Shown: positions 18,319 to 53,072, numbered from the stretch's first letter. The stretch is DNA of 64,000 bases from an uncultured bacterium (GCA_937863565.1 CALMGJ010000012.1:62001-126000), one strand, 5' to 3'. Notes: a model not told the origin generated them from the sequence alone. Numbers and translations: made by a program.

Positions 18319-18657
18319 ATGAAGTGGCTTGAGATACTCCAGAATGTCATACAGACACTTCTGACGGTATTCATTACTTTTCTTGTGTTCTGGCTCGCAG
18401 GTATCGTAAAGAAAAAATTCGGGAAAACCATGTCCGAGAAATATCTTAATGCCGCTCTGATGGCGGTCAAGATCACCGAACAACTCACAAGAACATCGGG
18501 AACTTCGGTGAATGGCCCGGGCAAAAAGACGATGGCCATAGGCATAGCTAAAGAGATCCTGGCCAAGGAAAATGAAAAGAATATAGACGAGGATATGCTT
18601 TCAAATATAATAGAGGCATCCGTCTACGAGATAAAAGGCAAAAAAAATGAAACTTAA
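18319..18657 (+). CDS. Small single-TM protein resembling LL-H-family phage holin
   Basis: N-terminal TM, then A..AVK..EQ....G.GKK..A....IEASV.E pattern. Confidence 0.6.
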   Translation: MKWLEILQNVIQTLLTVFITFLVFWLAGIVKKKFGKTMSEKYLNAALMAVKITEQLTRTSGTSVNGPGKKTMAIGIAKEILAKENEKNIDEDMLSNIIEASVYEIKGKKNET

Positions 18658-19819
18658 AACACTTGCGATCTTTATGATCGCCGCATCCATGCTGTCTGCT
18701 GAATTCCTTGACGGGATAGTGGCCCGGATCAATGAGGAGATCATTACAGATTTCGATGTGAAGATAGTCATGTTCTTCGATAAACAGGGCAAACTCACAT
18801 ATGAAAGTATCCTGAACGATCTTATCGACGAGCAGGTCATCATCGCCTCTGCAAAAGACATGAACTACGAGATCATCGATCAGGAGATCGATTATCATGT
18901 GGATCAGACCATCGCCAATCAGAGGTCGCAGTTCGAGTCGGAAGAAGAGTTCCTCGAGGCCATAAAAAATGAAGGGCTCACCCTGTCGTCCCTCACTGAG
19001 AATTACAGGAAACAAATAAAGAACCAGTTCCTCAAGGATAAGATCATTGATGACCGGATCAGGAAAAGGATTTCGATAACGACCCAGGAGGTAGAGGATT
19101 ATTATGCCGCCGCGAAGGACAGCTTCGTTGAAGGAGAACTCAGCTGGGACATCGATGTCATCTATTTTTCCGCCGTTGACAGGGGAGCGATGATCAAACA
19201 GTACGATCAGATCGTGCGCACCGGAAAGATCCCTTCTTCCGTTGAAAAGAAGGAATTTGCTCCTTTATATCTGGATTACCTGAGCGACGAGCAAAAAAAC
19301 CTGTTTTCAATCAGGAAGAATTTTACCGGATATATATTCACCGATAAGGGGCTCTGCTTCTACAGGATAATCAAATGGGAAGGAGAGAATCCGCATGTAG
19401 AATACTGCACGATGCCCTATGCGTCGAGCAAAAAATCCGCCGGCGAAGCTGCTTCCAGGGCTGAAGAGGTGCTTAAAAAGAATAAGGAAGGGGTCAGTTT
19501 CGAAGAGCTCAAACGCTTCAGCGAAGAAGATACGGAGAAACTGCTCTCCCCGGGGAATATCAAAGCGGGTAAAATCGATTCCGAATACAGGAAGGCTTTC
19601 GAGGCTGTAAAAAAAGGCGGCATCTTGACCGTCAGCACCACGCGGGGAATCTATCTTATAAAGATTCTTAATGTGAATTCCCCGAGAGCCCTTGCGATAG
19701 GGGATGTTTATCATAAGATATACGGAAAGATATACGACAAGAAATTCGAGGAACTCTACAAAGAATTCCTGAAAAATGCCAGAGCGGATAACTATGTGAG
19801 GATCTATAAAAATGAGTAA
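18647..19819 (+). CDS. SurA-like periplasmic chaperone
   Basis: Signal peptide, DGIVARINEEIIT SurA-N motif, degenerate parvulin region, C-terminal A.NYVRI. Confidence 0.8.
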   Translation: MKLKTLAIFMIAASMLSAEFLDGIVARINEEIITDFDVKIVMFFDKQGKLTYESILNDLIDEQVIIASAKDMNYEIIDQEIDYHVDQTIANQRSQFESEEEFLEAIKNEGLTLSSLTENYRKQIKNQFLKDKIIDDRIRKRISITTQEVEDYYAAAKDSFVEGELSWDIDVIYFSAVDRGAMIKQYDQIVRTGKIPSSVEKKEFAPLYLDYLSDEQKNLFSIRKNFTGYIFTDKGLCFYRIIKWEGENPHVEYCTMPYASSKKSAGEAASRAEEVLKKNKEGVSFEELKRFSEEDTEKLLSPGNIKAGKIDSEYRKAFEAVKKGGILTVSTTRGIYLIKILNVNSPRALAIGDVYHKIYGKIYDKKFEELYKEFLKNARADNYVRIYKNE

Positions 19820-20423
19820 AGACTTTCTGAACGACAAGAGAACGGACGCATTGAAAGAGCTTGGCAATATCGGAGCCGCACATGCGGCCACGGCATTGTC
19901 GCAGATGCTGGGGCATACTATCCAGATGACCGTCCCGCAGGTAACTTTCGTGAAGAAGACACAGATCGAGAATTCCGAAAAGTTCAAGGATAAAACGGGC
20001 ATCGCCATCTATACGGATATGTACGGAAAGATCAAAGGGAAAATACTCCTGTTCTTCGAATACTCCAATGCCGTGAACCTGGTCGAGATCCTTCTGAAAA
20101 GAGAAGCCGGGTCCGTGCAGAAGATCTCCGAGATAGAGGAATCTGCGCTTAAAGAGGTCGGGAACATACTTTCTTCGGCTTATCTCAATGCCGTATCCCA
20201 GATACTTGACGGCGTGCTTCTTCCCTCGATCCCTTCCATTTCGATCGATACGCTCTCCGGGGTTTTGAGTTTCTTCACCATGGAGTTCAAGGGAATGATC
20301 CAGAATGTGCTTTGGATCGAGACCGAATTAAGAAGCGAGAAAAGCGTAATAACCGGAGATTTCTTTCTATTCCCTCATGAAACCAGTCTGGATGTGATAT
20401 TCAATGCGATGAAGGTGGATTGA
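19812..20423 (+). CDS. cheC: CheC-family CheY-P phosphatase
   Basis: Two ExxN motifs: DALKELGNIG and SALKEVGNIL. Confidence 0.9.
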   Translation: MSKDFLNDKRTDALKELGNIGAAHAATALSQMLGHTIQMTVPQVTFVKKTQIENSEKFKDKTGIAIYTDMYGKIKGKILLFFEYSNAVNLVEILLKREAGSVQKISEIEESALKEVGNILSSAYLNAVSQILDGVLLPSIPSISIDTLSGVLSFFTMEFKGMIQNVLWIETELRSEKSVITGDFFLFPHETSLDVIFNAMKVD

Positions 20424-21226
20424 TGAGCATCAGGCTCCCGGCGCAAGCCGGAGCTTTCTATCCCTCCGGTGACAAAGAGATCGCTGAATTCTTCGGGTCC
20501 GTTCCCGAACCGGAGAAAAAAGACGCTGTCTGCGCGATAGTCCCTCATGCCGGTTGGATCTATTCGGGTTCCACGGCGCTTAAAGCGCTGAAGAACCTTG
20601 CTCCTGCTTCAACAGTGATCATGCTCGGACCCGATCATTACGGAATTTCCCGCCGCGCAGGCATCTATCCCCATGATTGCATCTGGAAACTACCGAACGG
20701 GGAACTTGCATGTTCCCCAAAAGTGAAAGAGATGAAGTCCGCATGCCCCTGGCTTTCGGAAGTTGATATCAAATATGACAGGGAGCATTCCCTTGAAGTG
20801 CTGTTGCCTTTCCTCATTGAACATTTCGGAAGTAGCGCTCAGCTGGTGCCGCTCATCATGTACGATTACGAAAAAGAAAAAATGAATGAGATCGCTGAAG
20901 CCGTTCTTGGGATCATCAGAGAAGGCAAAGGGAGCGCCGCCCTTATCGGAAGCAGCGATTTTTCCCATTTCGTTCCTGCAGCCCGTGCTCAAAAGAACGA
21001 TATGCTGGTCATAGATAGGATACTCGCTCTTGATCACGGAGCCCTGCATTCGGCCGTGAAGGAGAACGATGTTTCCATGTGCGGCCTGGGCCCTGTCTAT
21101 ATAACCACTTTTATCGCCGCCTCACTCGGCCTTAGACCGGAACTTCTTGAATACACATCGAGTGGCGCAGTGACAGGTGACGACAGGGACGTAGTGGCTT
21201 ACGCAGGCATCGTATTCAGAAAATGA
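20423..21226 (+). CDS. amrB: AmmeMemoRadiSam system protein B (MEMO1 family)
   Basis: AGAFYP, PHAGWIYSG, GPDH, EHSLEV, SSDFSH, MCG, VAYA. Confidence 0.92.
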   Translation: MSIRLPAQAGAFYPSGDKEIAEFFGSVPEPEKKDAVCAIVPHAGWIYSGSTALKALKNLAPASTVIMLGPDHYGISRRAGIYPHDCIWKLPNGELACSPKVKEMKSACPWLSEVDIKYDREHSLEVLLPFLIEHFGSSAQLVPLIMYDYEKEKMNEIAEAVLGIIREGKGSAALIGSSDFSHFVPAARAQKNDMLVIDRILALDHGALHSAVKENDVSMCGLGPVYITTFIAASLGLRPELLEYTSSGAVTGDDRDVVAYAGIVFRK

Positions 21227-22770
21227 ACATCTCTCCATATATCATGAGGACTTTCTCATCCTGTCCCAGGAAATACAGTTTTCAGTATCTGAAGGGATTA
21301 GGGGAGATTTACAAGGGTGATGCAAGGATGTTCAGTTACTCGAACCTTGTTCACAGCGCCCTTTTTGACATTTACGGAGATGATCCCGGAAAGGCGAATG
21401 TCAGAAAAGCTCTTTCCGAAGCGGCCGCAAGTTCGGGTATACGGGACAATTCGATGATAGACGAGGCGCGCAGCGCCATAGAGGATTATCTGAAAAGCTC
21501 TTCTTCTAAAGGAAAAGTTTTCCGCAACAACGAGAATATGACAGTGAAATGGGTGCAGAATGAATTCTTCATTCACTGCGACAGAATAGATATTTCAAAC
21601 GATATGCTGACCGTAATAGATTACAAAACGGGAAAGTCAAGACTGTCGGCCGACGAGGCGAAGGAAGATATCCAGAACGCCCTTTACAGGATCCTCACAG
21701 AAGAGAAGTTCAAAAAACCCGTAAAGGAGATCGTTCTTACCAATCTCACATCCAGACAGGAGATCAGACTCCGCCGGGAAGAACTGCTGCCGGAAGATCG
21801 CGCCAAAGGCCTTGTACGGACATTTATCGACGACCACAACAACATGAAGAAAGAGGGCTTTAAAGGCATTCCCGGCAGTCAATGCAAGTACTGCAATTTC
21901 AAGATCATCTGTCCTGATGCGGATGAGGATCTGAAATACTCGATAAACTACGATCCGATCTTGGGGGATATTTACAGGCTTAACGAGAAGATCAGGGAAC
22001 TGTCCGGGATACTGGACGAGAACATTCTTCATGGGAAGATACTGGAGGGATTCCTTGCATTGTCGGGCCTGCCTCACGCTGCGCTGGTCGATCCGGAAAA
22101 ACCGTCGATCAAGAGCGGAGAGAAAGTATTCTATATCAATGACGGGGCAGCGAATATCGCTGCGGTGAAAGCCAAAGGCGGCGACGATATTCCCTTCAAG
22201 AAGGAAGCGATTCTTGAAAGTTACCTGTCACAATCTGCGATCTTCCTTCATAATGCCAGGCTTTACCATAAAGCCAATACGGACAGGATGACGGGTTTCT
22301 ACCACCAGTCATTTTTAAAGAATTATATTGCCGGATTGATCGACGCCGGCTCGCCATTCTCGCTCATCATGTTCGATCTCGATCATTTCAAGAGCATTAA
22401 TGACACATACGGGCATCAAACGGGAGATATAGTTCTTATCGGGTTCGCTTCTTTGCTGAAGGAGAATATAAGACTCGAGAATGAAGATATAATCGCACGG
22501 TACGGCGGCGAGGAATTCGCCGTTCTGCTGTTCGAAAAGAACGTAAGATCGGCCGTGTCGATCGCGGACCGTGTGAGGGTAAAACTTGAGAAAAGCACAT
22601 TCCGGTCAGTGGACGGACGAACAATAAATATTACTGTGAGCGCCGGAGTGAACGGGTATGAACCGGGTAAGGGAAGTACGGCCTTGAATGTGATAGAGGA
22701 TTGCGATAAAGCGCTGTACGGCGCGAAAGAGACCGGACGCAACCGCGTCCATATGAATATTGAGGAGTAA
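21223..22770 (+). CDS. Fusion: PD-(D/E)XK (Cas4/RecB-like, 4-Cys) nuclease + GAF-like remnant + GGDEF diguanylate cyclase
   Basis: SSCPRKY, CDRID, IDYKTG, QNALY, CKYCNFKIICP; D.MTG, DLDHFKSINDTYGH..GD, RYGGEEF, D.ALY.AK..GRN. Confidence 0.88.
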   Translation: MNISPYIMRTFSSCPRKYSFQYLKGLGEIYKGDARMFSYSNLVHSALFDIYGDDPGKANVRKALSEAAASSGIRDNSMIDEARSAIEDYLKSSSSKGKVFRNNENMTVKWVQNEFFIHCDRIDISNDMLTVIDYKTGKSRLSADEAKEDIQNALYRILTEEKFKKPVKEIVLTNLTSRQEIRLRREELLPEDRAKGLVRTFIDDHNNMKKEGFKGIPGSQCKYCNFKIICPDADEDLKYSINYDPILGDIYRLNEKIRELSGILDENILHGKILEGFLALSGLPHAALVDPEKPSIKSGEKVFYINDGAANIAAVKAKGGDDIPFKKEAILESYLSQSAIFLHNARLYHKANTDRMTGFYHQSFLKNYIAGLIDAGSPFSLIMFDLDHFKSINDTYGHQTGDIVLIGFASLLKENIRLENEDIIARYGGEEFAVLLFEKNVRSAVSIADRVRVKLEKSTFRSVDGRTINITVSAGVNGYEPGKGSTALNVIEDCDKALYGAKETGRNRVHMNIEE

Positions 22771-22774
22771 AGGT

Positions 22775-23764
22775 ATGAAGAAAATAATACTGATGATAGC
22801 GGTCTTCACCGCGGCTTTGCTGATGGTAAACTGCAAGGGCAGGGAATGCGTTCCGCCGGAGATGACGAGGATAAATCTGGACGATTATCCGCTCACGGAG
22901 GACATCAAGGATAAGATAATAGTCGGGAAGACCGATGAAGGGATCGTTGTTACGGCACAAGATCTCTATGACTGGCTGGACCTGTTCTACTCCGGAAAGA
23001 AGAACATCATCCTCTCCGATCCCGCGGAAACGGAAAAGATAATAAACGACATTCTCGAGCAGAAGATCGGCGTTTATATTGCAAAAAGCCGCGGATACGA
23101 CCGCGAACCGGATTTCCTGAATTCTCTGCAGATGCTCAAGAAAAATTGGGAGGTTCGCGCCGAATATAATCTTGTGAAAAAACTCATCACCTTGGAAGTG
23201 GATAAAAGGATAGACCGGTCCGCTGCCGCACTGCGAAAATTCTACAGGGAGAACAAAAACGATATAGACAGATATTATGTGTATCTCATTATAACCCAAT
23301 GTTTCGAGAACAGCACTCAGGAAGAAGTGATAAGGGCTAAAAATAAGATCGAGGAGGCATACTCGCTTCTGAAAAAAGGAGAATCGTTCCCCAGCGTCGC
23401 GCGCATATATCTGGAGGGAAATCCCGACTGGGTCGCTCAGGGCGGTTTAATAGGATGGGTTCATCTCGGCGAGAGCTCCAAGGTGTTCGATTATAATCTT
23501 GAAAGAATGAAAGAGGGGAAATTCTCGGAACCCTTCCGGTCCCGCGAAGGCTGGGTGATCATCTATGTGGAAAAAATTGAGAAATTCGCGGAACGTGAGA
23601 ACTATATTAAAGCGCTCTACTATGATAAGATGGTCGGGCGGCTCAATATTCCCGTGAAAAAGGAGCTGGTAGGCCCCTATAAGAGGCAGATCTATCTCGA
23701 CACGCTCGATAAATACATCAAGGGAAAGATGAGCGAGGTTGAAAAGAGCATTCCGGAAAAATGA
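22775..23764 (+). CDS. Parvulin-type peptidyl-prolyl isomerase, probable lipoprotein (PrsA/SurA-like)
   Basis: Signal peptide ending ..VNC, GESF..VA, GGLIGW, SEPF.S..GW.I. Confidence 0.8.
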   Translation: MKKIILMIAVFTAALLMVNCKGRECVPPEMTRINLDDYPLTEDIKDKIIVGKTDEGIVVTAQDLYDWLDLFYSGKKNIILSDPAETEKIINDILEQKIGVYIAKSRGYDREPDFLNSLQMLKKNWEVRAEYNLVKKLITLEVDKRIDRSAAALRKFYRENKNDIDRYYVYLIITQCFENSTQEEVIRAKNKIEEAYSLLKKGESFPSVARIYLEGNPDWVAQGGLIGWVHLGESSKVFDYNLERMKEGKFSEPFRSREGWVIIYVEKIEKFAERENYIKALYYDKMVGRLNIPVKKELVGPYKRQIYLDTLDKYIKGKMSEVEKSIPEK

Positions 23765-24581
23765 TACCTTTATCCCCGAAAAGATATTGAAAGCTCCGGC
23801 GGCTCTTCTTCTGATCCTTACAGCCTCTTCATCATCCGCGGCAGAGGGTGCAGAGCATGTATTGGCGCACACGGAAACACTACCCTATTTTCTTATGCTT
23901 CTCGCTTCTTTTTTCATTTTACAGACAATAAGGATCAAAAAGATCAAAATAAGGGAGATCCCCGCCGTTCGCGCTATGGAAGAAGCCGTAGGCAGATCGA
24001 CGGAGATGGGAAAGCCGGTCCTTTTCATTACGGGATTGAAACCTATACCGGCAGTCTCCGCGATTGCTGCCGTGAATATACTCGGCGAAGTGGCATCGGT
24101 ATGCGCATCTTACAACACACCTATTGTTTCCCCGCACAGCAATTCCTTTACGATGCTTGCGGCGCAGGAAGAGATCCGTGAAGCATTCCAGAAAAAGAAC
24201 AATTTCGAACTCATCAATTCGAGCAGGATCTTTTTCGTAACGGATTCTCAGTTCCCCTTTGCCGCTTCCGTGAACTCCATTACAAATGAACTCAAACCCT
24301 CGGCCATCTTCTATATGGGCACTTTCTACGCTGAATCGCTCATACTCACGGAATACGGTCAATCCCAGGGAGCCGTTCAGATAGCCGGTACAGACTCGGT
24401 CGCGCAGATGCCGTTCTTCATAACGAGCTGCGACTATCTTCTTCTCGGCGAGGAGTTCTTTACGGCCAGCGCAATAATAAAGAACGATGAAAAGGAATTG
24501 CGCACTATCGCCGCTTTGGATGCGGCGAAGATCGTCACGATGGTCCTTTTGGTCTACAGCTTCGCAAGGTCGTTCCTGTGA
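23739..24581 (+). CDS. Membrane protein with soluble alpha/beta domain (resembles DUF6754)
   Basis: IREIPAV.A.EEAVGRSTEMGKPV, FYAESL..E, QIAGT, Q.PFF..CDY.LLGEE; start uncertain (TTG 23739 or 23787). Confidence 0.75.
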   Translation: MKRAFRKNDTFIPEKILKAPAALLLILTASSSSAAEGAEHVLAHTETLPYFLMLLASFFILQTIRIKKIKIREIPAVRAMEEAVGRSTEMGKPVLFITGLKPIPAVSAIAAVNILGEVASVCASYNTPIVSPHSNSFTMLAAQEEIREAFQKKNNFELINSSRIFFVTDSQFPFAASVNSITNELKPSAIFYMGTFYAESLILTEYGQSQGAVQIAGTDSVAQMPFFITSCDYLLLGEEFFTASAIIKNDEKELRTIAALDAAKIVTMVLLVYSFARSFL

Positions 24582-25234
24582 AGGAGACCGCTGTGCTCAT
24601 TATCGTTCTTATAGGCGGCATACTGATGATAGCCCAATATTTTCTCAACATACCTTTTCTGAACAGCCTTTATAAAAAAATCCTGGATTGGTCCATTGTG
24701 ATCTCAATATTCGCTCTCGTTATCGCCATCCGCTCGCTTCTTGCAAGGCAGTTCAAAGCGATCCGCGAAAGAACGGAGCATATAGTACTCCCCTTAACCA
24801 CGATCGTCTCGTTTTCCGCGGTTGTTATCATAGGGCTCATCTGGGGCGTCGGCGAAGGCGGATTCGTGGATACCGTTTATAAAAAATTCCTTGTTCCCAT
24901 GCAGGCGGCAATATTCTCCCTTCTCGCATTCTATATCGCCTCGGCCTCGTACAGAGCTTTCCGGGCAAAGAACTTTTCCTCGATCGTTCTTCTCGCTGCC
25001 GCCTCGATCGTGATAATCGGCCGGATCCCGCTCGGCGACGCATTGGCGGATATGACCACGGTTACCCTTAAAAGCGGCCCCTTCGCGCTTATAGATTTTC
25101 CCCGCTGGGCCGAATGGATACTCAATGTGCCCAATGTCGGGATTAAAAGAGCTTTCGCCTTCGGCATCACGATAGGTATCGTTTTCACTTCGCTTAAAGT
25201 GATCTTCGGCATAGAAAGAGGATATCTGAAATGA
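24578..25234 (+). CDS. Uncharacterised 6-TM membrane protein
   Basis: Six hydrophobic segments; FSLLAFYIASASYRAFR, GRIPLG, W.LNVP...KRA..FG; GTGA overlap. Confidence 0.8.
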   Translation: MKETAVLIIVLIGGILMIAQYFLNIPFLNSLYKKILDWSIVISIFALVIAIRSLLARQFKAIRERTEHIVLPLTTIVSFSAVVIIGLIWGVGEGGFVDTVYKKFLVPMQAAIFSLLAFYIASASYRAFRAKNFSSIVLLAAASIVIIGRIPLGDALADMTTVTLKSGPFALIDFPRWAEWILNVPNVGIKRAFAFGITIGIVFTSLKVIFGIERGYLK

Positions 25235-26028
25235 AGATCAAAAGGCAGTACATATACGCCGTATTATTCATTTCTGTGGTAATACCTCTTGCCACCGGAC
25301 TCACGTTCAAGGTCAGGCCGGGCCCTCCTGTAAAAAAATTCTATAGCGCTGTGAACGGTCTTAATGAAGGCGATTATGCCGCAGTAACGCTTTCTTACGA
25401 TCCCTCGACAAAGGCTGAATTGAATCCCATGGTGATCGCGCTCTGCGGTCATCTCTTCAGCCGTGATGTGAAGATCATCATGATGAACCCTCTGAATAAC
25501 AGCATAGGGAATCTGGGATATGAGCTTATAACCCGCGCGGCATCCCTATACGGAAAAAAGGAGAACGATGATTATTATTTCCTCGGTTATGTGCCGGGGG
25601 AGAAGTCCGCCCTCCAGAATATGGGAGAGGATTTCTATTCGGTTTATTCGAAGACATTCATGAAGGCCGAACTCAAGGACCTTCCTTTATACCGGGATAT
25701 CAAAACAATAGCCGACGCAAAGATGCTCATCGATATCTCTGACGGCAATTCCACGGTGGACCTTCTGACATATGTCAATACAAAATACGGCGTTCCCATG
25801 GCTGCGGGAACAACCGCCATCATGGCCGGAGAATACTATACATATCTCAATTCCGGCCAGCTTCTCGGCATGCTGGGCGGCCTCCGTGGCGCGGCGGAAT
25901 ACGAAACGATGCTCGGGGTGAACGGAAAGGGAAGAAGAGGAATGGCCGCGCAGACCTTTGCCCATATACTCGTTCTCCTTCTTGTGCTCGCCGGCAATAT
26001 AGAATATTTTTCGGGGAGAAGGAAATGA
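25231..26028 (+). CDS. Uncharacterised membrane-anchored protein (N- and C-terminal TM, soluble core)
   Basis: AELNP, DY..LGY.PG, YLNSGQL.G.LGGLRGAAEYE, M.AQ...H; ATGA overlaps. Confidence 0.8.
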   Translation: MKIKRQYIYAVLFISVVIPLATGLTFKVRPGPPVKKFYSAVNGLNEGDYAAVTLSYDPSTKAELNPMVIALCGHLFSRDVKIIMMNPLNNSIGNLGYELITRAASLYGKKENDDYYFLGYVPGEKSALQNMGEDFYSVYSKTFMKAELKDLPLYRDIKTIADAKMLIDISDGNSTVDLLTYVNTKYGVPMAAGTTAIMAGEYYTYLNSGQLLGMLGGLRGAAEYETMLGVNGKGRRGMAAQTFAHILVLLLVLAGNIEYFSGRRK

Positions 26029-26618
26029 TCCTCGATCTTATCACTCTTGCCCTCATCATCTGTATCTTTTCATTTCTCTTCAAGGATAATCCGTTCTTCA
26101 AATTTACGGAAAGGCTTCTCGTCGGCGTTTCTGCCGGATACGGATTCCTTATAATAATACGTGACGGCTTCCTTGCGAAATTCGTAGATCCGCTCCGGAC
26201 AGGTGACCTCTCTGTGATCATTCCGGGTCTTCTGGGGCTCATGTTCGTATTCACCCTTTTCAGAAGAACTGCTTTTCTCGCGAAGTATCCGCTGGCTTTC
26301 TTGCTGGGCACAGGCGCCGGCATGGAGATCGGCCCGAGGATAGAGACATCGATAATAAAGCAGATCTCGGCAATGGGATCGCACGTTTCAGGACCCGTGG
26401 AGATCATAAACAGAACAGTGCTTTTCATCTCCGCGCTTTCATCACTGTACTACTTTCTTTTTGCCGTGAGGAAAAATACGAAGTTCGATCGCTTCTTCGC
26501 CGGAACCGGTATCGTGTTCATGATGATAGCTTTCGGTGCCACATTCGGCTATACTGTGATGTCAAGGATATCGCTTCTTATTGATATCATCGATTCCGTC
26601 GTTCTGAGATTCTTCTAA
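26025..26618 (+). CDS. Uncharacterised 6-TM membrane protein
   Basis: SFLFKDNPFF...E...VGVSAGY, GTGAG, FGATFGYTVMSR. Confidence 0.8.
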   Translation: MILDLITLALIICIFSFLFKDNPFFKFTERLLVGVSAGYGFLIIIRDGFLAKFVDPLRTGDLSVIIPGLLGLMFVFTLFRRTAFLAKYPLAFLLGTGAGMEIGPRIETSIIKQISAMGSHVSGPVEIINRTVLFISALSSLYYFLFAVRKNTKFDRFFAGTGIVFMMIAFGATFGYTVMSRISLLIDIIDSVVLRFF

Positions 26619-27064
26619 AAAGTGTTCTTGCAGGTATTGCACTCGAAATAAAATACGGACGAGAAATGCTCCGAGAAAATAAAAAAAAATGGAATGAAAA
26701 GCAGAAGCGGGAATACAACTATGCAAAGGATTACGATATTCGGCTTAAGCTTGCGCATGGTATCTGTTCCACCGCAGAACGGGCATTTCCTGCCGGTTTC
26801 GTCGTCTATCTGATCTTCGGTAAGTTCATTCAGTGAATCATAAGCCTCATCAGGGGAAATGTCTATACCTTTTTCCAGGAGTTTCTCAGCTTCCTTCATC
26901 TGTTCCGGGGGCACGAGAATGTATGCTCCCTTGGTTCCGATATTCCCCGGGATCTTGTCTATCTTTATCTCGGCGTCTATGCCGTTATTCCGGAGAAATG
27001 TCTTCAGCATCTCGGCTTCGAAATCATTGTCCAGTGTTTTCAAAATGAGCATTTCATCGTTCAT
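26615..27064 (-). CDS. DUF2007-like domain + CxxC...CxxC zinc ribbon flanking one TM
   Basis: EAEMLK..L..NGI, ILVP.E...A..LL; CPFC / TM / CNTC. Confidence 0.7.
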   Translation of the reverse strand: MNDEMLILKTLDNDFEAEMLKTFLRNNGIDAEIKIDKIPGNIGTKGAYILVPPEQMKEAEKLLEKGIDISPDEAYDSLNELTEDQIDDETGRKCPFCGGTDTMRKLKPNIVILCIVVFPLLLFIPFFFIFSEHFSSVFYFECNTCKNTF

Positions 27065-29958: not shown

Positions 29959-31368
29959 ATGAAAAAAGTAATAATACTCATCTTTTTCACGGCTATGGTG
30001 ATGTTCACCGTGAGCATTGAGGAATACATGGAAATGGCCCTCGAGAGATCCAATGCCTACAGGATCGCAGAAAGCGAATACAGGATGAAAGAGGTTTCCT
30101 ACCGCATCGCAAAAGGCGCTTTTCTACCCGAAGTGCTGTTCAAATTCCGCGCGCCCGACTATTCCTGGCGGGAGGACCTCATTAACTATTTCGGCCTTCC
30201 GCAGAGGATATCCTTCATTTCGGAAACGAACAATACCGGCGCCAGCCTCGGCCTTTCCCAATGGCTTCCCTTCTCCGGCCGCCTCAACATCACGGGCAGC
30301 TTCAGCAAATACAGATCCGAGTATAATCTTTACGACGATATTGATGAATTCGACCTTAACACGTCTCTAAGCCTGACCGTGCCGATACTGGAAGAAGACC
30401 TTCAGGTGGTCGAGGCGCGCAGAAAAAAATGCGATCTTCTCATCGCCAAAAACAAATTCGATAAAGAGAAAAAGACCATCGAAAAGAACGCCGCGTCATT
30501 CTATATAATGGCTCAGTTGTACGCGGTGAGGGAAATGATCGCCCGCGAGGAACTCTCCAATACGGAGCGGTTGTATGAAATGACCAGGGATAAATTGAAA
30601 ACAGGCATCTCTTCGGAGCTTGATCTTCTTGATATAGAGATCCGCCTTTCCGAAAAGAAGATAGGCCTTCTCGAAGCGGAGAATCAGAAGGGGATGGCCT
30701 TTAAAAAACTCAAGGATTTCGTGAACTCCGGCGCGGAGATCGCAGTTGATGAAGGGCAGGCCGAGCTTTTCGACGGGAAACCGGATTTTGATTATGAGGA
30801 CATTCTCTCCCGCGCGTTGAGAACTGATGAGAATCTCGACAGCCTGGAACTCCAGATAGGCCTCATTAAAAGAGAACTGCGATACGATGTATTCAGGAAA
30901 TATTTCTCCGCGAGCGTCAGCGCGGGGTACACGCTTGACGGGAAAGGTGAAACAGCGGACGAGGCCTTAGGGGATTTCAGGAAGAACTACTGGTTCGTTT
31001 TCCTCAATCTTTCAGTCCCGATATTCACCGGGTCCATAAAATCGAGCGAGATCAAATATAAGGAATTATCGCTTCAAAAGATCGAACTGGACAAGGATGA
31101 ATATGAAAAGAACCTAATCGAGCAGATCCGCACCTCATATGACAGATATACGCTTCTTAAAAAGAACCTCGACCTCGCGAGGATGCAGGCGGACAAAGCA
31201 AAAAAGCTCTTCGAGCTGACGGAATTGAGATATGCCAAAGGCCTGGAAAGCCTTGACAGGATGAAAGAGGTCGAAGTGGCTTATGAGAACGCCCGTTATT
31301 CGCTGGGCAATACCATTAAGGAACTCAATATCAGTTATCTTGAATTGATCTACTATTCGGAGGAATAA
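29959..31368 (+). CDS. TolC-family outer membrane protein
   Basis: Signal peptide, A...FLP, two repeats ending LSLTVPI / LSVPIF.G, RY..G. Confidence 0.85.
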   Translation: MKKVIILIFFTAMVMFTVSIEEYMEMALERSNAYRIAESEYRMKEVSYRIAKGAFLPEVLFKFRAPDYSWREDLINYFGLPQRISFISETNNTGASLGLSQWLPFSGRLNITGSFSKYRSEYNLYDDIDEFDLNTSLSLTVPILEEDLQVVEARRKKCDLLIAKNKFDKEKKTIEKNAASFYIMAQLYAVREMIAREELSNTERLYEMTRDKLKTGISSELDLLDIEIRLSEKKIGLLEAENQKGMAFKKLKDFVNSGAEIAVDEGQAELFDGKPDFDYEDILSRALRTDENLDSLELQIGLIKRELRYDVFRKYFSASVSAGYTLDGKGETADEALGDFRKNYWFVFLNLSVPIFTGSIKSSEIKYKELSLQKIELDKDEYEKNLIEQIRTSYDRYTLLKKNLDLARMQADKAKKLFELTELRYAKGLESLDRMKEVEVAYENARYSLGNTIKELNISYLELIYYSEE

Positions 31369-31369
31369 T

Positions 31370-32080
31370 ATGTGGTTTAAGATCCTTTTAAATCAGATCC
31401 TTGCACCCGAAAAAGCATATAACGACCTTGATCAGGAATACGGCAAGAACGAATTCTATGCTTATCCCTGGATCTTCGTGCTTCTGGTCTACTCGGCTAT
31501 AATGATCCCGGCCTCGCTCAGTATGACGCCGAAAATGAAGCAGTTCATTCCGGCCTTTGTCGAGAAGATGGCCGAAAAGAACGGTTTCAACGAAGCGATG
31601 ACGGCAAGAGTGATGACTTCAATGGAAAAGAGCATCTCTTTCCAATCCTACTTCATCCCGGTCAATCTCATCCTAATCATTCTTCTTGTATCTCTTCTTA
31701 CATGGATATACCTTTACTTGTTCTATTACAATCTGAGTTTCGGGAAGATATACACCGTGATGATGCTTTCATATGCTCCCGCTATTATCGGCTCCCTTGT
31801 CTCGATCGCATACCATCATGCCACGGGCTTCAAGGGTATTGCGGGATTCGGCGATTTTCAGAATATGACCCTGGGAGTGCATCTTTTCATCAAGGGGCTC
31901 AATCCCGTTCTGAAGAACTTCCTCTCTTTTGTTAATATCTTCAGCCTGTGGAGTCTTTTCGTAACTATAACGGGGATATCCGTGCTGTCCAAAAAGCCGT
32001 TCGCCAGAACGGCGTTCATCCTGTTCATCCCGTATCTTATTCTGAACGCCGGCCTTGCTTTCCTTCGTGGTAATGTATGA
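31370..32080 (+). CDS. Yip1-domain membrane protein (YknW-like)
   Basis: IL.PEK.Y, about 5 TM, NIFSLW; position before MFP. Confidence 0.7.
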   Translation: MWFKILLNQILAPEKAYNDLDQEYGKNEFYAYPWIFVLLVYSAIMIPASLSMTPKMKQFIPAFVEKMAEKNGFNEAMTARVMTSMEKSISFQSYFIPVNLILIILLVSLLTWIYLYLFYYNLSFGKIYTVMMLSYAPAIIGSLVSIAYHHATGFKGIAGFGDFQNMTLGVHLFIKGLNPVLKNFLSFVNIFSLWSLFVTITGISVLSKKPFARTAFILFIPYLILNAGLAFLRGNV

Positions 32081-33225
32081 ACCGTTCAAGGATCATCCTC
32101 TACTTTGTTCTCATCTTCATCGCCGTGACGATAGTTGTGGGCATCTTCAGCAAGAAGAAGGGCGCTTTAGAGAAGGTCAGATGCGTGGAAACCCTGCGTT
32201 CGGACTTCGAAGGTTATATATTCACGAACGGGTACTTGAAATACAGGATCATCGAAAAATACGGCGGCGAATACCAGGGTAGGATAAAGAAGATCTATTA
32301 TTCTCCCGGGCAATCGTTCAAGAAAGGCGATAAGCTTATGGAGATAGGGGATTCATCTTTCTTGTTCGACCTTTTCACCGATTATGCAAGGGCAAAGGTG
32401 AACTTCGATTCTCTCGAAGTAGAATACAACGGCGCGCTTTCTGTTTTCGATCGCGGCGGGATATCCTTAAGCGAGATGAACAAGCTGAAAGCCCGGTATT
32501 TTGAAGCGAAAACATATTATGAGAATCACAAATTCCTTTATTACCGGAATTCGGGGTACGGATACGATAACGGGGATTTCCTTGTCCGGGCGCCTTTCAA
32601 CGGAAAAGTGCTTTCCGTGAACTACCAGGACGGGGAGAATCTCAGCAAGGTGCAGACCATAATGGAAGTGTCAAGAGACACGGATATGTACGCCGTTCTT
32701 AATGTGAATATCCTTGATTCGAAAAAGATCAAGGTCGGCGATCCCGTCTCTATCACTTCGGACGTACTCCCGTCTTTCAAAGCGGAAGGCAAGATCGAAA
32801 GCGTTTCGCTCATCCCGAGGCAGCTCAATGAGACTCAGGTGATAGAGGTCCATGCGGGGATTGAGATGTCGGAAACCCTTCCGGACAATATACCCATAGA
32901 GGGTAAGATCGTATATGAAGTGCTGAAGGATGTTCTCAGCATCCCGCTCGAATCTCTCTCCGAGAACAAGAACTATTTCAAGAACAAGAAGAAGGAATCT
33001 TTGTATTATGTATTCGTGGTGAAACCGGAGGATGCCAAGAAGAGGCATGGCATCCTCGAGAAAAGGGATGTCCAGATCGGAATGCAGAACGATTTTTTTG
33101 CCGAGATCACGGATGGCCTCAAGGAAGGGGAGATGGTCGTGAATTATTCGGAGAAACCCGTTTTCAACAAAGAGGATGTTGAATATGAAATTGATAGAAC
33201 TCAAGAAGATATCAAAGATCTATAG
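32077..33225 (+). CDS. Efflux membrane-fusion (periplasmic adaptor) protein
   Basis: N-terminal anchor, lipoyl halves (G.I..I...G..FKKGD; RAPFNGKV), EITDGLKEGE.VV. Confidence 0.88.
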   Translation: MNRSRIILYFVLIFIAVTIVVGIFSKKKGALEKVRCVETLRSDFEGYIFTNGYLKYRIIEKYGGEYQGRIKKIYYSPGQSFKKGDKLMEIGDSSFLFDLFTDYARAKVNFDSLEVEYNGALSVFDRGGISLSEMNKLKARYFEAKTYYENHKFLYYRNSGYGYDNGDFLVRAPFNGKVLSVNYQDGENLSKVQTIMEVSRDTDMYAVLNVNILDSKKIKVGDPVSITSDVLPSFKAEGKIESVSLIPRQLNETQVIEVHAGIEMSETLPDNIPIEGKIVYEVLKDVLSIPLESLSENKNYFKNKKKESLYYVFVVKPEDAKKRHGILEKRDVQIGMQNDFFAEITDGLKEGEMVVNYSEKPVFNKEDVEYEIDRTQEDIKDL

Positions 33226-33871
33226 GATGGGCAAGATCGATGTGGCTGCCCTGCAAAGCATAGATCTGGATATAGATAAAGGAGAGTATCTCGCCATCAT
33301 GGGGCCTTCAGGGTCCGGCAAATCCACTTTGATGAACGTGATCGGCTGCCTTGACACGCCGTCTTCGGGAGAATATCATCTCACCGGAGATAATGTGAGC
33401 AGACTTTCGGACAATGAACTGGCGGCGATACGGAACAGGAAGATTGGATTCGTTTTCCAGACATTCAACCTTCTTCCTCGGATGAATGCCAGAAAGAACG
33501 TGGAACTGCCCCTCATTTACAGCGGAATGAAAAAAAAGGACCGCGAACATCGTGCAGTCGAACTTCTCGAGAAGGTCGGCATCGGCGACAGGGTAAACCA
33601 TCTTCCCGGGGAGCTTTCCGGCGGACAAAGGCAGAAGGTGGCCATTGCTCGCGCTTTGGCCAACAATCCGGACATCATACTCGCGGACGAACCGACGGGG
33701 AACCTTGATTCCAGGTCCGGCGAAGAGATCATGAAGATCTTCGACGACCTCAATAAGGAAGGTGTAACGCTCATCGTGGTGACGCACGAGAAGGATATCG
33801 CAAAACACATGCACTATATAATCCATCTCAAGGACGGCCTTATCGTGGAGAAAGAGATAAACGGCAAATGA
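33185..33871 (+). CDS. ABC transporter ATP-binding protein (LolD/MacB/YknY type)
   Basis: [29 protein letters not shown]. Confidence 0.95.
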
Positions 33872-35067
33872 GCGGATATTTCGAAGAACTGGTCCAGACA
33901 ATTTCAAGCCTCAAGGAACAGGCGATGAGGTCGCTGCTCACGATGATAGGCATCATCGTGGGCGTTATGGCCATAATAGGCATTGTATCCATCGGCCAGG
34001 CCGGCAAGAATTCGATAAAGAAGGACCTTGAAAGCTTCGGAACCAATATCGCCGCCATGTGGCCGGAGCGCCGCGAGAATTCCGTTTACAAACCCCTTAA
34101 TAAATACGATGCGGAATTTTTAAGGCACCTCGCCTTTATCGAGTCCGTTTCTCCCATCTACTACCTTTACAAGGAAGTGCGGTACAATGATTTCAAAACG
34201 ACCACGATGGTCAACGGGGTGAACGAGGGTTATTTCAAACTCAATAACAGAACGGTCTCGACGGGGCGTCTTTTTACGGAAAAAGAGAATACGGGGTCAA
34301 GGAGAGTGTGCGTCATTACCGAAGGTATAAAGAACGATATCCAGAAGAAATACGGCATCGTCAATCCCGTCGGCAGGATCATCAAGATAGGAGATTTCCC
34401 CTTCTATATCATCGGCGTACTGAAAAAACCGGAACTGAAATCATTCCTCTCTACGCTCATGAGCGAAGAGAGGGATGTGTATGTTCCGGAGAACGCCCTT
34501 AAGATAACATTTGGCAATTTCGATATCCGGTATCTGATCTTCGGTCTCAAGGAAGGCGTTAAACCGGAAAAGGCTAAAAACTCTCTCGAGTTCCTTTTCC
34601 GTTTGAGAAAGGGAAAGAACACTTATTACGGAATGAACTTTCTCGAAAGTCAGGTCAATGTTTTCACCGGAGTGATGAATAAGATCACTTTCATCATTAC
34701 CCTGATCGGCGCGCTGTCGCTCTTTGTCGGCGGCGTGGGCATTATGAACATCATGTTCATTTCGGTTACCGAAAGAACGAGGGAGATCGGAATAAGAAAA
34801 GCGCTTGGCGCTTCCCAGAACGCGATTATGAGGCAATTTCTCAGCGAAGCCGTCATCATCTCTTTTGCCGGATCGACGCTCGGCGTTCTTGTGGGCATAC
34901 TCATTACGATACTCATTGAAAGCGCCATAAAATGGGGGATCTATATCTCAGCCCTGAGCGTGGTCATTTCGTATGTGTTCTCCACTCTGATCGGTATTAC
35001 CTTCGGCCTGCTCCCGGCAAAGAAAGCCGCTTCGCTGAATCCGATAGACGCGTTAAGGTACGAATAA
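33868..35067 (+). CDS. ABC permease (MacB/FtsX/YknZ type)
   Basis: RSLLTMIGI, GGVGIMNIM..SV.ERTREIGIRKALGA, PA.KAA.LNPIDALRYE. Confidence 0.95.
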   Translation: MSGYFEELVQTISSLKEQAMRSLLTMIGIIVGVMAIIGIVSIGQAGKNSIKKDLESFGTNIAAMWPERRENSVYKPLNKYDAEFLRHLAFIESVSPIYYLYKEVRYNDFKTTTMVNGVNEGYFKLNNRTVSTGRLFTEKENTGSRRVCVITEGIKNDIQKKYGIVNPVGRIIKIGDFPFYIIGVLKKPELKSFLSTLMSEERDVYVPENALKITFGNFDIRYLIFGLKEGVKPEKAKNSLEFLFRLRKGKNTYYGMNFLESQVNVFTGVMNKITFIITLIGALSLFVGGVGIMNIMFISVTERTREIGIRKALGASQNAIMRQFLSEAVIISFAGSTLGVLVGILITILIESAIKWGIYISALSVVISYVFSTLIGITFGLLPAKKAASLNPIDALRYE

Positions 35068-38216: not shown

Positions 38217-38240
38217 AGACCGGTCTTTGAAGGAGTGGAT

Positions 38241-39260
38241 ATGCCGAGAAAAGCGCTGATCTTGACCATTCCGGCGGTCGGTCATATACTCCCGGCGGCG
38301 ACTGTCATAAAAAAACTGGCTGAAGAGGGATATTCCGCCGACATTATCTGCGAAAAAAGATATGCGGCCTATTTTCATTCGCATGGCGCTTCAAGAGTAT
38401 TTACTATAAAAGGCTGTGGAACCCATACCCGTCTCAAGGGCATTCAAGCCCTGCTGTTCTTGAAGCTTTTTTATTATAACAGGATCGTCGGCGACCTTGC
38501 CGACAGCCATCTTGAAAGGGAAAGATACGATCTTCTTCTGTCCGATATGTTCATGCTTGCCGGTCCTCCTCTTGCATCAAAGCACGGCATCGGATATGCG
38601 GCGATATGTCCCATTATCTGGCCGTTCAGAACAGGCGCGGATCCCGCATACAATATCCCGGCGGAACTTCCGCGGGCAATGAACGTGGTACTGAACGGCA
38701 TATTCGGCCTGCTCCTTGATTCATTCGCTCCGGTGATAGGATCTTTCTACAGAAAGTACGGTGTGAAGGTAAAAAGCTACGGATGGCGCATACACACCGG
38801 ATATGAAAAGATCTATGTGACCATTCCGGAGAAATTCCATGCCTTTATGAGAGCAAAGCCGCGGAATATGATCTTCCTTGACCATATTCCAGAGGACAGA
38901 CCCCTCTTTAAAGGGGGGATAAGGTTGAAAGAAGATGCGAAATACATTATAATATCATTAGGGACTGTTTTTTACAGGACATCCCGGATAAGGTCTATCG
39001 TGAAGAAGTACGGGCTGAAAAAATTCCCGCACAAGATAATCGTTCTCGGCGATTCGGAGAGAACGGAGGATGGAGTGCAGTTTATGAAAGGAATCTCGCT
39101 CAATGAAATCCTGCCCTATGCCTCACTTTTTATAACTCACGGCGGGATCAATTCCCTTCTCGCTGCTTATCATCACAGAGTACGCACTCTTATCCTGCCT
39201 CAATCCGCGGAACAATTCGAGAATAAAAGGATATTCAAAAAAATACTGGAGGATATATGA
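38241..39260 (+). CDS. GT1-type (MGT/UDP-glycosyltransferase) protein
   Basis: PAVGHI, ISLGT, FITHGGINS, P.SAEQ..N. Confidence 0.82.
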   Translation: MPRKALILTIPAVGHILPAATVIKKLAEEGYSADIICEKRYAAYFHSHGASRVFTIKGCGTHTRLKGIQALLFLKLFYYNRIVGDLADSHLERERYDLLLSDMFMLAGPPLASKHGIGYAAICPIIWPFRTGADPAYNIPAELPRAMNVVLNGIFGLLLDSFAPVIGSFYRKYGVKVKSYGWRIHTGYEKIYVTIPEKFHAFMRAKPRNMIFLDHIPEDRPLFKGGIRLKEDAKYIIISLGTVFYRTSRIRSIVKKYGLKKFPHKIIVLGDSERTEDGVQFMKGISLNEILPYASLFITHGGINSLLAAYHHRVRTLILPQSAEQFENKRIFKKILEDI

Positions 39261-42200
39261 ACACCTACTGCAGGTTCCCATCGATTTGGAATGATCTCAT
39301 TGCTTTTGTTTGCGACGATGATCTCTGGGTAATGGATGCCGGCCTCAAGCCGCAGAGGCTGACCAACGGAAGGTCTCAGGTAACATTCCCCGTTTTTTCC
39401 CCCGACGGGAAATACATTGCCTTCACCGCTTATGAAGAGGGTGCGAATGAAATATACGTGATCCCCTCGAAGGGCGGCGAGGCAAAGAGGATCACCTATC
39501 TCGGTGCTGCGAGCACTGCTCTCAAATGGACATCAAAAAGCGAGATATTATTCCGGACCAATGCGGGTTATTTTACAAGAAGACAGAACAACTTGTTCGT
39601 CATCTCCCCGGACGGAGGCTCGCCCCGTCTGCGGGATTTCGGCCCGGCCAACCATATTTCATTCGAACCTTCAGGCAGGGGCGTTGTTCTTGGAAGGAAC
39701 ACCGGGGAACCGGCCAGATGGAAGAGGTATAAAGGCGGAACTGCGGGAGAATTGTGGATCGACCTGAAAGGCGATTTCAAATATAAAAAGCTCATTGACC
39801 TAAAAAGCAATCTCACATGTCCGCTGTGGATTGGTGAGCGTATCTATTTCATTTCCGATCACGAAGGCAATGGTAATCTTTATTCCGTGAACAAACTCGG
39901 CAAGAACATCAAGAAACACTCCGATCTTAAGGAATACTATGCGAGGAATCTGTCAACTGATGGAAGGAAGATTATATTCCACGCCGGCGGCGACCTCTTC
40001 GTATTCGATACGTCATCCGGAACTCTTGATAAGCTGATATTTCACGTGCCGGTGCCTAAAATGCAGGCGCGTCTTAAATTCGACCCCGCTTTAAGATATC
40101 TTGAGGATTTTCATCCGGCGCATAATGGGAAGTCCATCACATTCTCTGCCCGAGGCAATGTGTTCGCAATGGAGAATTTTCACGGCCCGGCCTACAGACT
40201 CCGGAATAAAATGAACGCAAGGTACCGCCTCCCGAAATTTCTCAAAAAGGACAATACCGTGATCGCGGTGGATGATGAGAGCGGAGAGGAAGAGATCAGA
40301 AAATACGATTTCAGGCACTTCGAGAGAGGCGAAAAGATCTGCTCAGGCTTCGGCCGCGCGGTCATGACGAAGATCTCTCCGGCCGAAGACAAGGTCGTGC
40401 TTTTGAACCATAAACAGGAGATAATGCTGATAGATATCGTGCAAAAAAGGACGCAACTCGTCCACAGGAATAAATTCGGAATGATCGCCGGGTTGAATTT
40501 TTCTCCCGACGGGAAATTCCTTACATATGCCGCGGGAATATCCGGTAAAAGGACGGCGATCTTCCTTTACGATACCGAAAAGAAAAGGGAAACACAGATA
40601 ACGGATCCCGTTCTGCAGGATCATTCGCCCTCTTTCTCGCCGGACGGTAAATATATTTACTTCATAGGCGTACGCGTTTTCAACCCCGTTTATGATCAGG
40701 CTCAGTTCGAGTTGAGCTTTCCTAAGGCCGAGAAGATCTATGCCATCCCTCTCAGAGCCGATGTAAAAGCTCCGGGAGAATTCATGCCTTTCGAGGAGCC
40801 GCCCGCGACCGATCCAAAGGATACGCCCAAGGAAGCAAAAAAGAAAGAAGAAAAGAAGATCACCGTTTCCGTAGACTACGAGAATATTAAGAACAGGATA
40901 AGAGAACTTCCCTTCCCTCTCGGGATCTACGGTGATGTCGAGGCGGAAGGAAAAAAGATATTCGCGCTGACGCTTTCGCCCCGCGGGTCTCTTGGAGATG
41001 ATTTCTTTGATGATGACCTTCCGCAAGGCAGCGTAGTCTATTATGACATCGAAAAAAAGAAATACGGTACATTCATTTCCAATGTTTCGTATTACTACCT
41101 CACAAAAGAGTATATCTTCGTCCGCATAGGTAGGGACGCAATAAAAGTTTTCTCCAATGCGGAGCCCGTGCCCGCCGAAATGCTTTCTAAATCAGGCAGG
41201 GAAGGCGGGAACATCGACCTTTCCCGCGCATCTGTGCTCGTTGATCCGGTGATGGAATGGAAACAAATGTACGGCGAGGCCTGGAGACTTCAGCGGGATA
41301 ATTTCTGGACGGAGAATATGTCGCATATAAACTGGAAAAAGGTGTTCGACCGCTACTATGTCCTTCTGGACAGGATCTCGACCAGAGCCGAATTTTCAGA
41401 TATCATCTGGGAGATGCAAGGGGAACTGGGTACTTCTCACTGCTATGAATTCGGCGGCGATTACAGGCATCCGGCGAATTACCCGGTCGGTGCCCTTGGA
41501 GCGGAGTTCTCCTGGAGCGACGCAAAGAAAGGCTGGGAGATCAAACGCATTTACGGAGGCGACTCATGGGAACCAAGATTCGCTTCCCCGCTTCAGACGC
41601 CCGGTTACTCATTCGGCCGCGGCGATGTGATAAAGAAGGTCAACGGCATTTCAGTGAAAAAGAATATCACGCTCGGCGAGATGCTGCTGAATGAGGCGGG
41701 AAAGGAAGTGGAACTTCTCGTTAAGCCGGCTTCGGGCAAGAAAGATTTCTCCGCTTTCATTAAAGCGGTCGGGAATGAGACCAATATACTCTACCGTGAA
41801 TGGGTCGAGAAGAACAGAAAACTCGTTCATGAGAAGACAAAAGGCCGCACCGGTTATGTGCATATTCCCGATATGGGGCCTTTCGGATTCTCGGAGTTCC
41901 ACAGATACTACCTTTCAGAAGTTGAACACGACTCTCTTATCGTGGACGTTAGGTTCAACGGCGGAGGTCATGTCTCTCCGCTCATATTGGAAAAACTGAA
42001 AAGAAAGCGTATCGGATATGATATAAAAAGATGGGGAAAACCGGAGCCGTATCCTTCAGACTCCGTTCTGGGCCCGATCGTGGTCCTTACAAATGAACAT
42101 GCCGGCAGCGACGGGGATATCTTCTCGCATTCGTCCAAACTTATGGAACTGGGCAAACTGATCGGCAAAAGGACATGGGGCGGCGTCATCGGCATCTGGC

Positions 42201-51930: not shown

Positions 51931-51987
51931 AAACACCTTGTTTTTTCAGTATAAAAAGTTTAAAATAACACTATGCGGAGTAGAAAA

Positions 51988-52986: not shown

Positions 52987-53008
52987 TAAAAGCCGATCTC
53001 TACGTCCG

Positions 53009-53035
53009 GCGAACCATTCACGGTTTGCTTTTTTT
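53009..53035 (+). terminator. Intrinsic terminator
   Basis: GCGAACC-attcac-GGTTTGC stem-loop followed by T7. Confidence 0.75.
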
Positions 53036-53072
53036 ATTTAAAACCATTAAAATTATCTATTAGGAGAGCGTG

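Follow-up and report, generated by a model that had tools for sequence, protein, structure and literature searches.

A conserved four-gene membrane quartet with one DUF6754 protein, possibly a complex of two inverted halves

The stretch analysed here, 64,000 nucleotides of DNA from an uncultured bacterium (GCA_937863565.1, CALMGJ010000012.1:62001-126000; hereafter the window), carries between positions 23739 and 26618 four head-to-tail open reading frames (ORFs) that we call A, B, A′ and B′, the start codon of each of the last three overlapping the preceding stop. Gene A (23739-24581, plus strand) encodes a DUF6754 protein of 280 aa when read from the TTG at 23739, its first possible start; the gene model of an identical database protein (P0001) starts at the TTG at 23787 and yields 264 aa. 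Gene B (24578-25234, plus strand) starts with GTG and encodes 218 aa with six transmembrane (TM) segments, predicted to have both termini inside (N-in/C-in). Gene A′ (25231-26028, plus strand) encodes 265 aa, comprising an N-in TM helix, a Rossmann-like domain predicted to be periplasmic, a second TM helix and a C-in tail, and gene B′ (26025-26618, plus strand) encodes 197 aa with six TM segments, predicted N-out. A first-pass annotation of the window had described four genes joined by 4-nt RTGA overlaps, and a direct reading bears out both coordinates and junctions: GTGA at 24578-24581 (A/B), ATGA at 25231-25234 (B/A′) and ATGA at 26025-26028 (A′/B′). Purine-rich stretches precede the starts of A′ and B′ by 8-12 nt. 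The same annotation had noted neither an ATPase nor a binding-protein gene in the operon, and indeed none occurs in 18647-26618.

A belongs to DUF6754 (PF20539), a family without assigned function. The first-pass annotation had suggested this label, and the match is a strong one (E 2.8e-76; score 256.5 bits, cut-off 27; residues 52-273 aligned to positions 20-241 of the 257-position profile), shared by all 94 aligned A relatives. The family covers A only, leaving B, A′ and B′ outside; none of these three gives a DUF6754 match. Searches of the ESM Atlas with B and A′ returned unnamed orthologue clusters only, the structure matches of B having TM-scores of 0.2-0.34, and the sole new item from the A′ search was a set of long Chloroflexota forms, A′ proteins with N-terminal zinc ribbons. 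We found no paper mentioning DUF6754, PF20539 or PF13941 (the last is the Pfam family of an ATPase considered below), and the titles and abstract openings of the broader literature on GlmL with NqrA, MutL, ASKHA or hydantoinase held nothing relevant to the quartet. To judge from these searches, no known family or system accommodates the four genes: B, A′ and B′ have no family model and none of the four has a solved relative, nor did the Pfam, NCBIfam and PDB sequence searches disclose a clear match to an already characterised complex.

The arrangement is widely conserved. An A-profile search of a one-genome-per-species collection found an A relative encoded in 608 of the 623 candidate stretches listed, and the 79 closest of the at least 608 confirmed loci, all from metagenome-assembled genomes (MAGs) or single-amplified genomes, form the sample of related loci used throughout. 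Gene order was assessed with family hidden Markov models downstream of those A genes that are followed by at least 2400 nt of DNA; B, A′ and B′ come in order and on the same strand after 63 of 66 of them, in support of the first-pass suggestion that similar quartets exist, here in uncultured bacteria. The three exceptions are an ordering artefact from a spurious long ORF (L073), a second, solitary A (L017) and one further solitary A (L037). Median gaps at the three junctions of the relatives are 10, 2 and 5 nt (n = 85, 83 and 76). Submitter labels of the loci cover more than 12 phylum-level names, including Marinimicrobia/Neomarinimicrobiota, WOR-3, Zixibacteria, Stahl-, Eisen-, Fermenti-, Edwards- and Coatesbacteria, Latescibacterota, Planctomycetota, Lentisphaeria, Ignavibacteria, Muiri- and Mcinerneyibacteriota and Myxococcota, to which protein matches add Nitrospira, Calescamantes and Chloroflexota. 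An exhaustive B′ profile search gave 2924 representatives (clustered at 50% identity) at E ≤ 1e-3, 2254 at E ≤ 1e-10 and 767 at E ≤ 1e-30.

The genes also duplicate and fuse together. Two or three quartets stand in tandem at 11 of the 79 loci, and in the three-quartet loci of Zixibacteria each copy shares 75-86% identity with the same copy of another genome, for all four genes, against 35-58% with the other copies; duplication therefore took in whole quartets, which went on to diverge jointly, and the three copies are old. Two contigs of one MAG (L050 and L053) carry one quartet each, so that multiple quartets per genome occur outside tandem arrays as well. Among the 150 best B′ representatives, three are A′-B′ fusion proteins (P0399, P0425 and P0503; 579-598 aa, with a linker of ~85 aa). 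At one Planctomycetota locus, the TM3-TM4 loop of the B protein (L038:1255-2598) accommodates a 185-aa A′-type insert. Its identity to the soluble A′ domain encoded next to it is 41% (E 1e-43), and the locus has two A′-type domains in consequence. Complex prediction with all four chains, A′ being taken as the partner, gave a median score of 0.71, against 0.70 for a control in which chain A was replaced, and so speaks neither for binding nor against it. Since the four genes are inherited, duplicated and sometimes fused as one unit, we infer that their products very probably assemble into a single inner-membrane complex; the multi-subunit membrane assembly proposed at first pass is the natural reading of the tight coupling, the whole-quartet duplications and the A′-B′ fusions.

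The two bitopic proteins resemble each other in the layout of their predicted folds. AlphaFold2 models built from the family alignments (predicted local distance difference test score, pLDDT, 89.2 and predicted TM-score, pTM, 0.82 for A; 94.7 and 0.91 for A′) have the same order of elements, namely a TM helix, a helix, six beta-alpha units and a long C-terminal TM helix, and differ by one short additional helix before strand 3 in A and an insert after helix 3 in A′. They agree with the first-pass description of a TM segment, an alpha/beta domain and a C-terminal TM segment, the soluble domain measuring ~175-200 aa; in A, a signal-like or TM0 segment precedes the TM helix of the Rossmann-like domain. 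Conservation is uneven across the quartet: over 69 complete quartets the mean pairwise identity is 52% for A, the most conserved subunit, 44.5% for B, 44% for B′ and 39% for A′, the least conserved. A has 23 invariant columns in 94 sequences, with one cluster in the helix before strand 1 (R70, T72, E73, G75) and others at the C-terminal ends of strands 3-6 (D153/Q155, G178, G201/T202, D216, G221/E222/E223). The 78 aligned A′ sequences share 6 invariant columns, among them Q210/G213/E225 and N256, the last lying in the C-terminal TM helix, where Q241, H245 and N256 are conserved and H245 is nearly invariant. With the topology predicted below, the identity order A > B, B′ > A′ fits a constant cytoplasmic face and a variable periplasmic one.

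Most A′ proteins carry a conserved D-R-R-x-I/L-F about 12 residues from the start, which is twin-arginine-like (homologues P0129-P0242), and two arginines followed by two hydrophobic residues are present in 68 of 120 A′ homologues. Export of the window A′ by the twin-arginine (Tat) pathway was considered and rejected: its N-terminus (25231-25260) has K-R-Q, and the motif is lost or variable in its own clade (K-K-E and others).

Both B and B′ are six-TM, Gly-rich proteins, as first described, with the qualification that B has six hydrophobic segments and B′ four strong ones plus two that are weaker and Gly-rich. The glycine motifs quoted in that description all exist and fall on invariant or nearly invariant columns (G196 and G200 of B; G34, Y39, G95, G99, G171, F174 and G175 of B′). 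Just after TM4 of B, R126 is invariant and R129 nearly so. No acidic residue is conserved within the TM segments of either protein, and neither has an invariant cysteine. The TM4-TM5 loop of 15 of the 150 B′ representatives contains inserts of 112-353 aa; that of P0440 reads as coiled-coil-like, and two of seven scanned against Pfam (P0420 and P0458) have EF-hand motifs.

The distribution of lysine and arginine (K+R) predicts opposite orientations for the two pairs. In A, the 15 residues after TM1 contain 4.28 K+R on average, against 0.56 before it, and the long A forms place a signal-like segment and an N-terminal ectodomain of ~100 aa ahead of TM1 (1 of 94 scores as fn3, E 0.005). In A′ the tails are the richer, with 3.58 (N-terminal) and 4.05 (C-terminal) K+R against 1.81 and 2.51 on the domain side. 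The N-tail and the even loops of B are dense in K/R, as are the odd loops of B′, whose N-tail is K/R-poor. The linkers of the A′-B′ fusions add exactly one hydrophobic segment in all three cases, and of the 34 B′ representatives whose N-terminal extension exceeds 60 aa, 32 show exactly one there, as expected if A′ ends inside and B′ starts outside. The A′-type domain of L038 sits in a B loop that the charge bias places outside. From charge bias, long forms, fusions and insertions together, the A domain is predicted to be cytoplasmic, the A′ domain periplasmic, B N-in and B′ N-out. The predicted orientations of the pairs being opposite, the apparent 2x2 design would be inverted rather than parallel; the parallel version implied by the first-pass annotation is contradicted, at the level of prediction, by the K/R bias, the L038 insertion and the fusion and extension forms. 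It is thus probable that the complex consists of two architecturally equivalent halves, A+B and A′+B′, in opposite orientation.

Whether these halves share an origin is a separate matter. A/A′ and B/B′ had been presented as paralogs, and profile comparison detects no sequence homology in either pair. BLASTP gave E 0.29 for A against A′ and 1.1 for B against B′; hhalign gave E 0.038 and 0.028, at probabilities of 1.3-1.7%, and in a second run E 0.012 (23 columns, TM to TM) and 0.024, the probabilities of the two runs together lying at 1-3%. These scores are close to those of reversed-profile controls (A-A′, 21.3 against 20.1 reversed; B-B′, 20.5 against 16.9 reversed), and neither the global nor the low-mact mode of hhalign produced a signal above control. 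The AGT/LLG motif pair noted at first pass does mark the ends of strands 5 and 6 in the model of A and in that of A′, each time 20 residues apart; as hhalign does not align these motifs, we treat the equal spacing as a lead only, of no assigned significance. "Paralog" is accordingly best regarded as an interpretation that the sequence comparisons do not support.

The explanation that we prefer, and to which we give a probability of about 0.4, is that the quartet forms one complex with inverted halves that acts as a translocator of a new type. The functional part of it, translocation of a solute or an envelope precursor, is put forward tentatively. One half would consist of A, with its DUF6754 Rossmann-like domain in the cytoplasm, paired with the N-in, six-TM protein B; the other would consist of A′, with a Rossmann-like domain of the same element order in the periplasm, paired with the N-out, six-TM protein B′. 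B and B′ together would provide the membrane path, and the fast-evolving periplasmic domain of A′ would serve as receptor or specificity element, while the slowly evolving cytoplasmic domain of A may be the binding site for a conserved ligand or partner and the element that couples or gates the process. A GlmL-type ATPase, a 375-aa protein and a hairpin protein, none of them encoded in the window, may energise or regulate it in about one third of the relatives, where their genes lie beside the quartet.

Several observations weigh against this proposal. No known transporter, channel or enzyme family matches any of the four subunits: for the window B, Pfam and NCBIfam gave nothing below E 0.45 (best, 7TMR-DISM_7TM), for A′ and B′ no match up to E = 1, and family scans of 75 B, 71 B′ and 78 A′ members one by one gave scattered weak, sub-threshold matches only, the commonest being TMD0_ABC in 17 of the 75 B members (best E 0.0043). 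Sequence-profile searches of the PDB with A, B, A′ and B′ yielded nothing better than E 0.36. Foldseek against the PDB matched A and A′ to generic Rossmann-like proteins only, with TM-scores of 0.19-0.38 normalised by query length (the best by target length, 0.54, concerns short targets), and Rossmann-like domains with conserved strand-end residues are more typical of enzymes and ligand sensors than of transporter parts. The quartet loci offer no clue to a substrate. The topology is a prediction throughout, and TM2 and TM4 of B′ are only weakly hydrophobic; with A-A′ and B-B′ homology undetectable, the equivalence of the two halves is one of architecture. Lastly, hmmsearch at E ≤ 1 finds none of the three neighbour genes just mentioned in the 64-kb window, and many amply flanked loci, the three-quartet Zixibacteria loci included, lack them as well; this, together with the apparently larger size of the 375-aa family than of the A family, means that their link to the quartet may be facultative or indirect.

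In another explanation the quartet is an enzyme or biosynthetic complex of the membrane whose substrate would be a phosphorylated sugar, a nucleotide-sugar or a lipid-linked envelope intermediate, with A and/or A′ catalytic and B/B′ a scaffold or flippase-like. The invariant residues of A at the C-terminal ends of strands 3-6 are placed as in Rossmann-type active sites, and among the listed matches of A′ the lowest rmsd (root-mean-square deviation) belongs to the Rossmann domains of ribose-1,5-bisphosphate isomerase and eIF2B (3a11_B and 7kmf_F; probability 1.00, rmsd 4.6-4.8 over 176-177 columns); A′ also matches GT-B C-terminal domains, and 10 of 94 A members have IF-2B Pfam matches. These IF-2B matches are weak and below significance (best E 0.053), however, the TM-scores of 3a11_B and 7kmf_F by query length are only 0.32-0.33 with E-values that are not significant, the IF-2B and isomerase proteins are soluble, and the structural matches are generic throughout. 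Moreover, nucleotide sugars would be out of reach for an A′ domain in the periplasm, and the conserved neighbours include no biosynthetic gene; CdsA and a lipid kinase recur in Marinimicrobia-type loci only. We consider an enzyme complex unlikely.

On the first-pass reading, the four proteins would be a heterotetramer of two paralog pairs, here taken as parallel, that forms a channel or an ion-coupled secondary transporter, possibly with peptides or amino acids as its substrates. An operon without an ATPase, the conserved Gly-rich helices and charged residues near the TM ends, and the duplication of quartets within genomes, as is frequent in transporter families, are all in keeping with such a protein. 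Against it stand the undetectable paralogy, the opposite predicted orientations and the lack of a conserved acidic residue in the TM segments of B and B′. The substrate had been suggested by a tricorn-type protease gene (39257-42460) and an acetate/butyrate-kinase-like gene (4085-5164), which lie 12.6 and 18.6 kb from the quartet, and no such gene is found among the recurrent neighbours of the 79 loci. This arrangement thus appears quite unlikely; an ion-coupled transporter or channel as such is no more than a possibility.

Clustering of the flanking ORFs of the 79 loci revealed three recurrent neighbour families. The first, in 23 loci, is a GlmL-family ASKHA ATPase of ~600 aa (Pfam "MutL", PF13941, E 4e-124; NCBIfam GlmL models below their cut-offs). 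The second, in 24 loci, is a soluble 375-aa protein (L005:4406-5530 and 21 relatives) with a barrel-sandwich N-terminus, which matches RnfC_N in 17 of 22 members (best E 1e-7) and NQRA_N in 13 of 22, and a KOW-like C-terminus; it is extremely conserved, with 60% mean column identity and 56 invariant columns, and a PDB sequence-profile search with it gave nothing significant. Databases label it "hypothetical" or, automatically, "biotin carboxyl carrier protein", and the MKM biotinylation motif is absent. Its family has at least 8000 scored clusters against 2476 scored matches of the A family, counts that are not strictly comparable. The third, in 22 loci, is a ~114-aa protein in which a hydrophobic hairpin is conserved. 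Of the 79 loci, 30 have one or more members of the trio, upstream or downstream, in varied order and in more than 10 named lineages, so that the absence of an ATPase, correct for this operon, is not supported as a property of the system.

These genes raise the alternative of an ATP-driven machine of seven genes, to which the quartet would contribute the membrane module, with the ATPase and the RnfC/NqrA-N-like protein docking on the cytoplasmic DUF6754 domain and their genes located elsewhere in this genome. The adjacency of the trio to the quartet on either side and in many lineages, the extreme conservation of the 375-aa protein and the predicted cytoplasmic location of the most conserved A surface argue for such a machine. 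The absence of the trio from the window and from many well-flanked loci argues against it, as does the fact that GlmL-family proteins are otherwise tied, by their NCBIfam names, to soluble B12 mutases; on balance we find the machine doubtful. A bolder version of the inverted design draws on the same neighbours. An ancient and widespread class of envelope machine would have arisen from two genes, one for a bitopic protein with a Rossmann domain and one for a six-TM protein, by duplication of the pair and inversion of one copy in the membrane, giving a pseudo-twofold axis in the membrane plane and equivalent domains on both faces that couple the two sides, by transport or transduction, and the result would in many lineages be driven or controlled by the GlmL-type ASKHA ATPase through an RnfC/NqrA-like adaptor. 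We regard this scenario as speculative and rather unlikely.

Directly upstream of the quartet, a five-gene run with overlapping ends (18647-23764, plus strand) encodes a SurA-like peptidyl-prolyl isomerase (PPIase), a CheC-like protein, a Memo-like protein, a PD-(D/E)XK+GGDEF protein and a PpiC-type PPIase, and probably shares a transcription unit with the quartet in this lineage. A promoter-like site lies upstream of the run at 18584-18611; such sites are no more frequent here than in shuffled sequence, from which the promoter and terminator scans did not differ. The five-gene order, with the phosphofructokinase gene upstream, is kept at one of the 79 related loci only (L001; 37-80% identity, 58% for A), and the SurA/CheC/Memo/GGDEF context, common to L001 alone, was rejected as a general functional clue. 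The CheC-like and GGDEF proteins of this operon, along with soluble domains predicted on both faces, would suit a transmembrane signalling or scaffolding complex in which A′ senses a periplasmic ligand and A reports to the cytoplasm, without transport. That operon context, however, recurs in only 1 of the other 79 loci, no known signalling output domain is found, and at least 14 TM helices exceed what signalling needs; we therefore hold a signalling or scaffolding role without transport to be improbable.

The subunit layout of the quartet resembles that of Rnf and Na+-NQR. These complexes contain two six-TM subunits of ~200 aa that face opposite ways, an anchored subunit whose domain is periplasmic, another whose domain is cytoplasmic, and a soluble subunit bearing the RnfC_N/NQRA_N barrel-sandwich domain. 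Likewise, the quartet has two six-TM subunits of ~200 aa predicted to be opposite and a domain on each face, and an RnfC_N/NQRA_N-type domain is found in the 375-aa protein of related loci, although not in the window. The quartet plus its 375-aa neighbour could accordingly be a distant, cofactor-less analogue or relative of these ion-translocating complexes. In contrast to them, however, B and B′ have neither a family match nor a conserved cysteine: no Rnf-Nqr match appeared for the window B and B′ at E ≤ 1, nor among the first 25 of 87 and of 36 per-member families. No flavin-attachment-type or Fe-S motif was seen, there is no counterpart of RnfD/NqrB and no NADH or ferredoxin module, and the enzyme beside related quartets is an ASKHA ATPase rather than a redox module. 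Such a kinship is, in our view, very improbable.

The inverted design can also be set beside the antiparallel pairs EmrE-type, Fluc and RnfA/RnfE, whose partners are recognisable homologues. B and B′ resemble these as polytopic proteins of similar size with opposite K/R bias and differ in that their similarity does not exceed the reversed-profile control and that each half of the quartet bears a large soluble domain, the two predicted on opposite faces. The periplasmic alpha/beta domain of A′, held between two TM helices and the fastest-evolving part, recalls TRAP/TTT systems and TM-ectodomain-TM units of the MacB/FtsX type; there is, however, no homology in sequence or structure, A′ has a single Rossmann-like lobe instead of a two-lobe binding protein, and no ABC ATPase accompanies it. 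Unlike ABC and ECF importers or exporters, the quartet comes without a nucleotide-binding subunit in 18647-26618.

Elsewhere in the window, a convergent minus-strand gene (26615-27064) overlaps the B′ stop by 4 nt and encodes a protein with a DUF2007 domain, a zinc ribbon and a C-terminal TM segment. A MacB-type tripartite efflux unit, complete and separate from the quartet, begins 3.3 kb downstream (29959-35067) and comprises an outer-membrane factor, a Yip1-domain protein, an HlyD-type adaptor, an ABC ATPase and a MacB/FtsX permease. The tricorn-type protease gene is flanked by three ORFs (341, 540 and 326 aa) without a Pfam match, in the region 38235-44929. The region 51973-53885 holds a pair of neighbouring genes for CsgG-like lipoproteins, of which the second has a SPOR domain, and an Imm5-like immunity protein gene (63174-63656) lies near the window end.

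Overall, the quartet is not confined to one genome: its at least 608 loci have carriers among Marinimicrobia, Zixibacteria, WOR-3, Planctomycetota, Nitrospira-labelled MAGs and many candidate phyla. A conserved complex of at least 14 helices with domains on both faces is likely to have a basic role in the envelope or in transport, in lineages dominant in marine and sediment communities. The natural fusions and insertions, together with culturable carriers in Planctomycetota or Ignavibacteria, would open the inverted design to testing; if true, this two-half arrangement would carry the principle of the antiparallel dimer beyond small transporters, to a multi-subunit complex that bears soluble domains.

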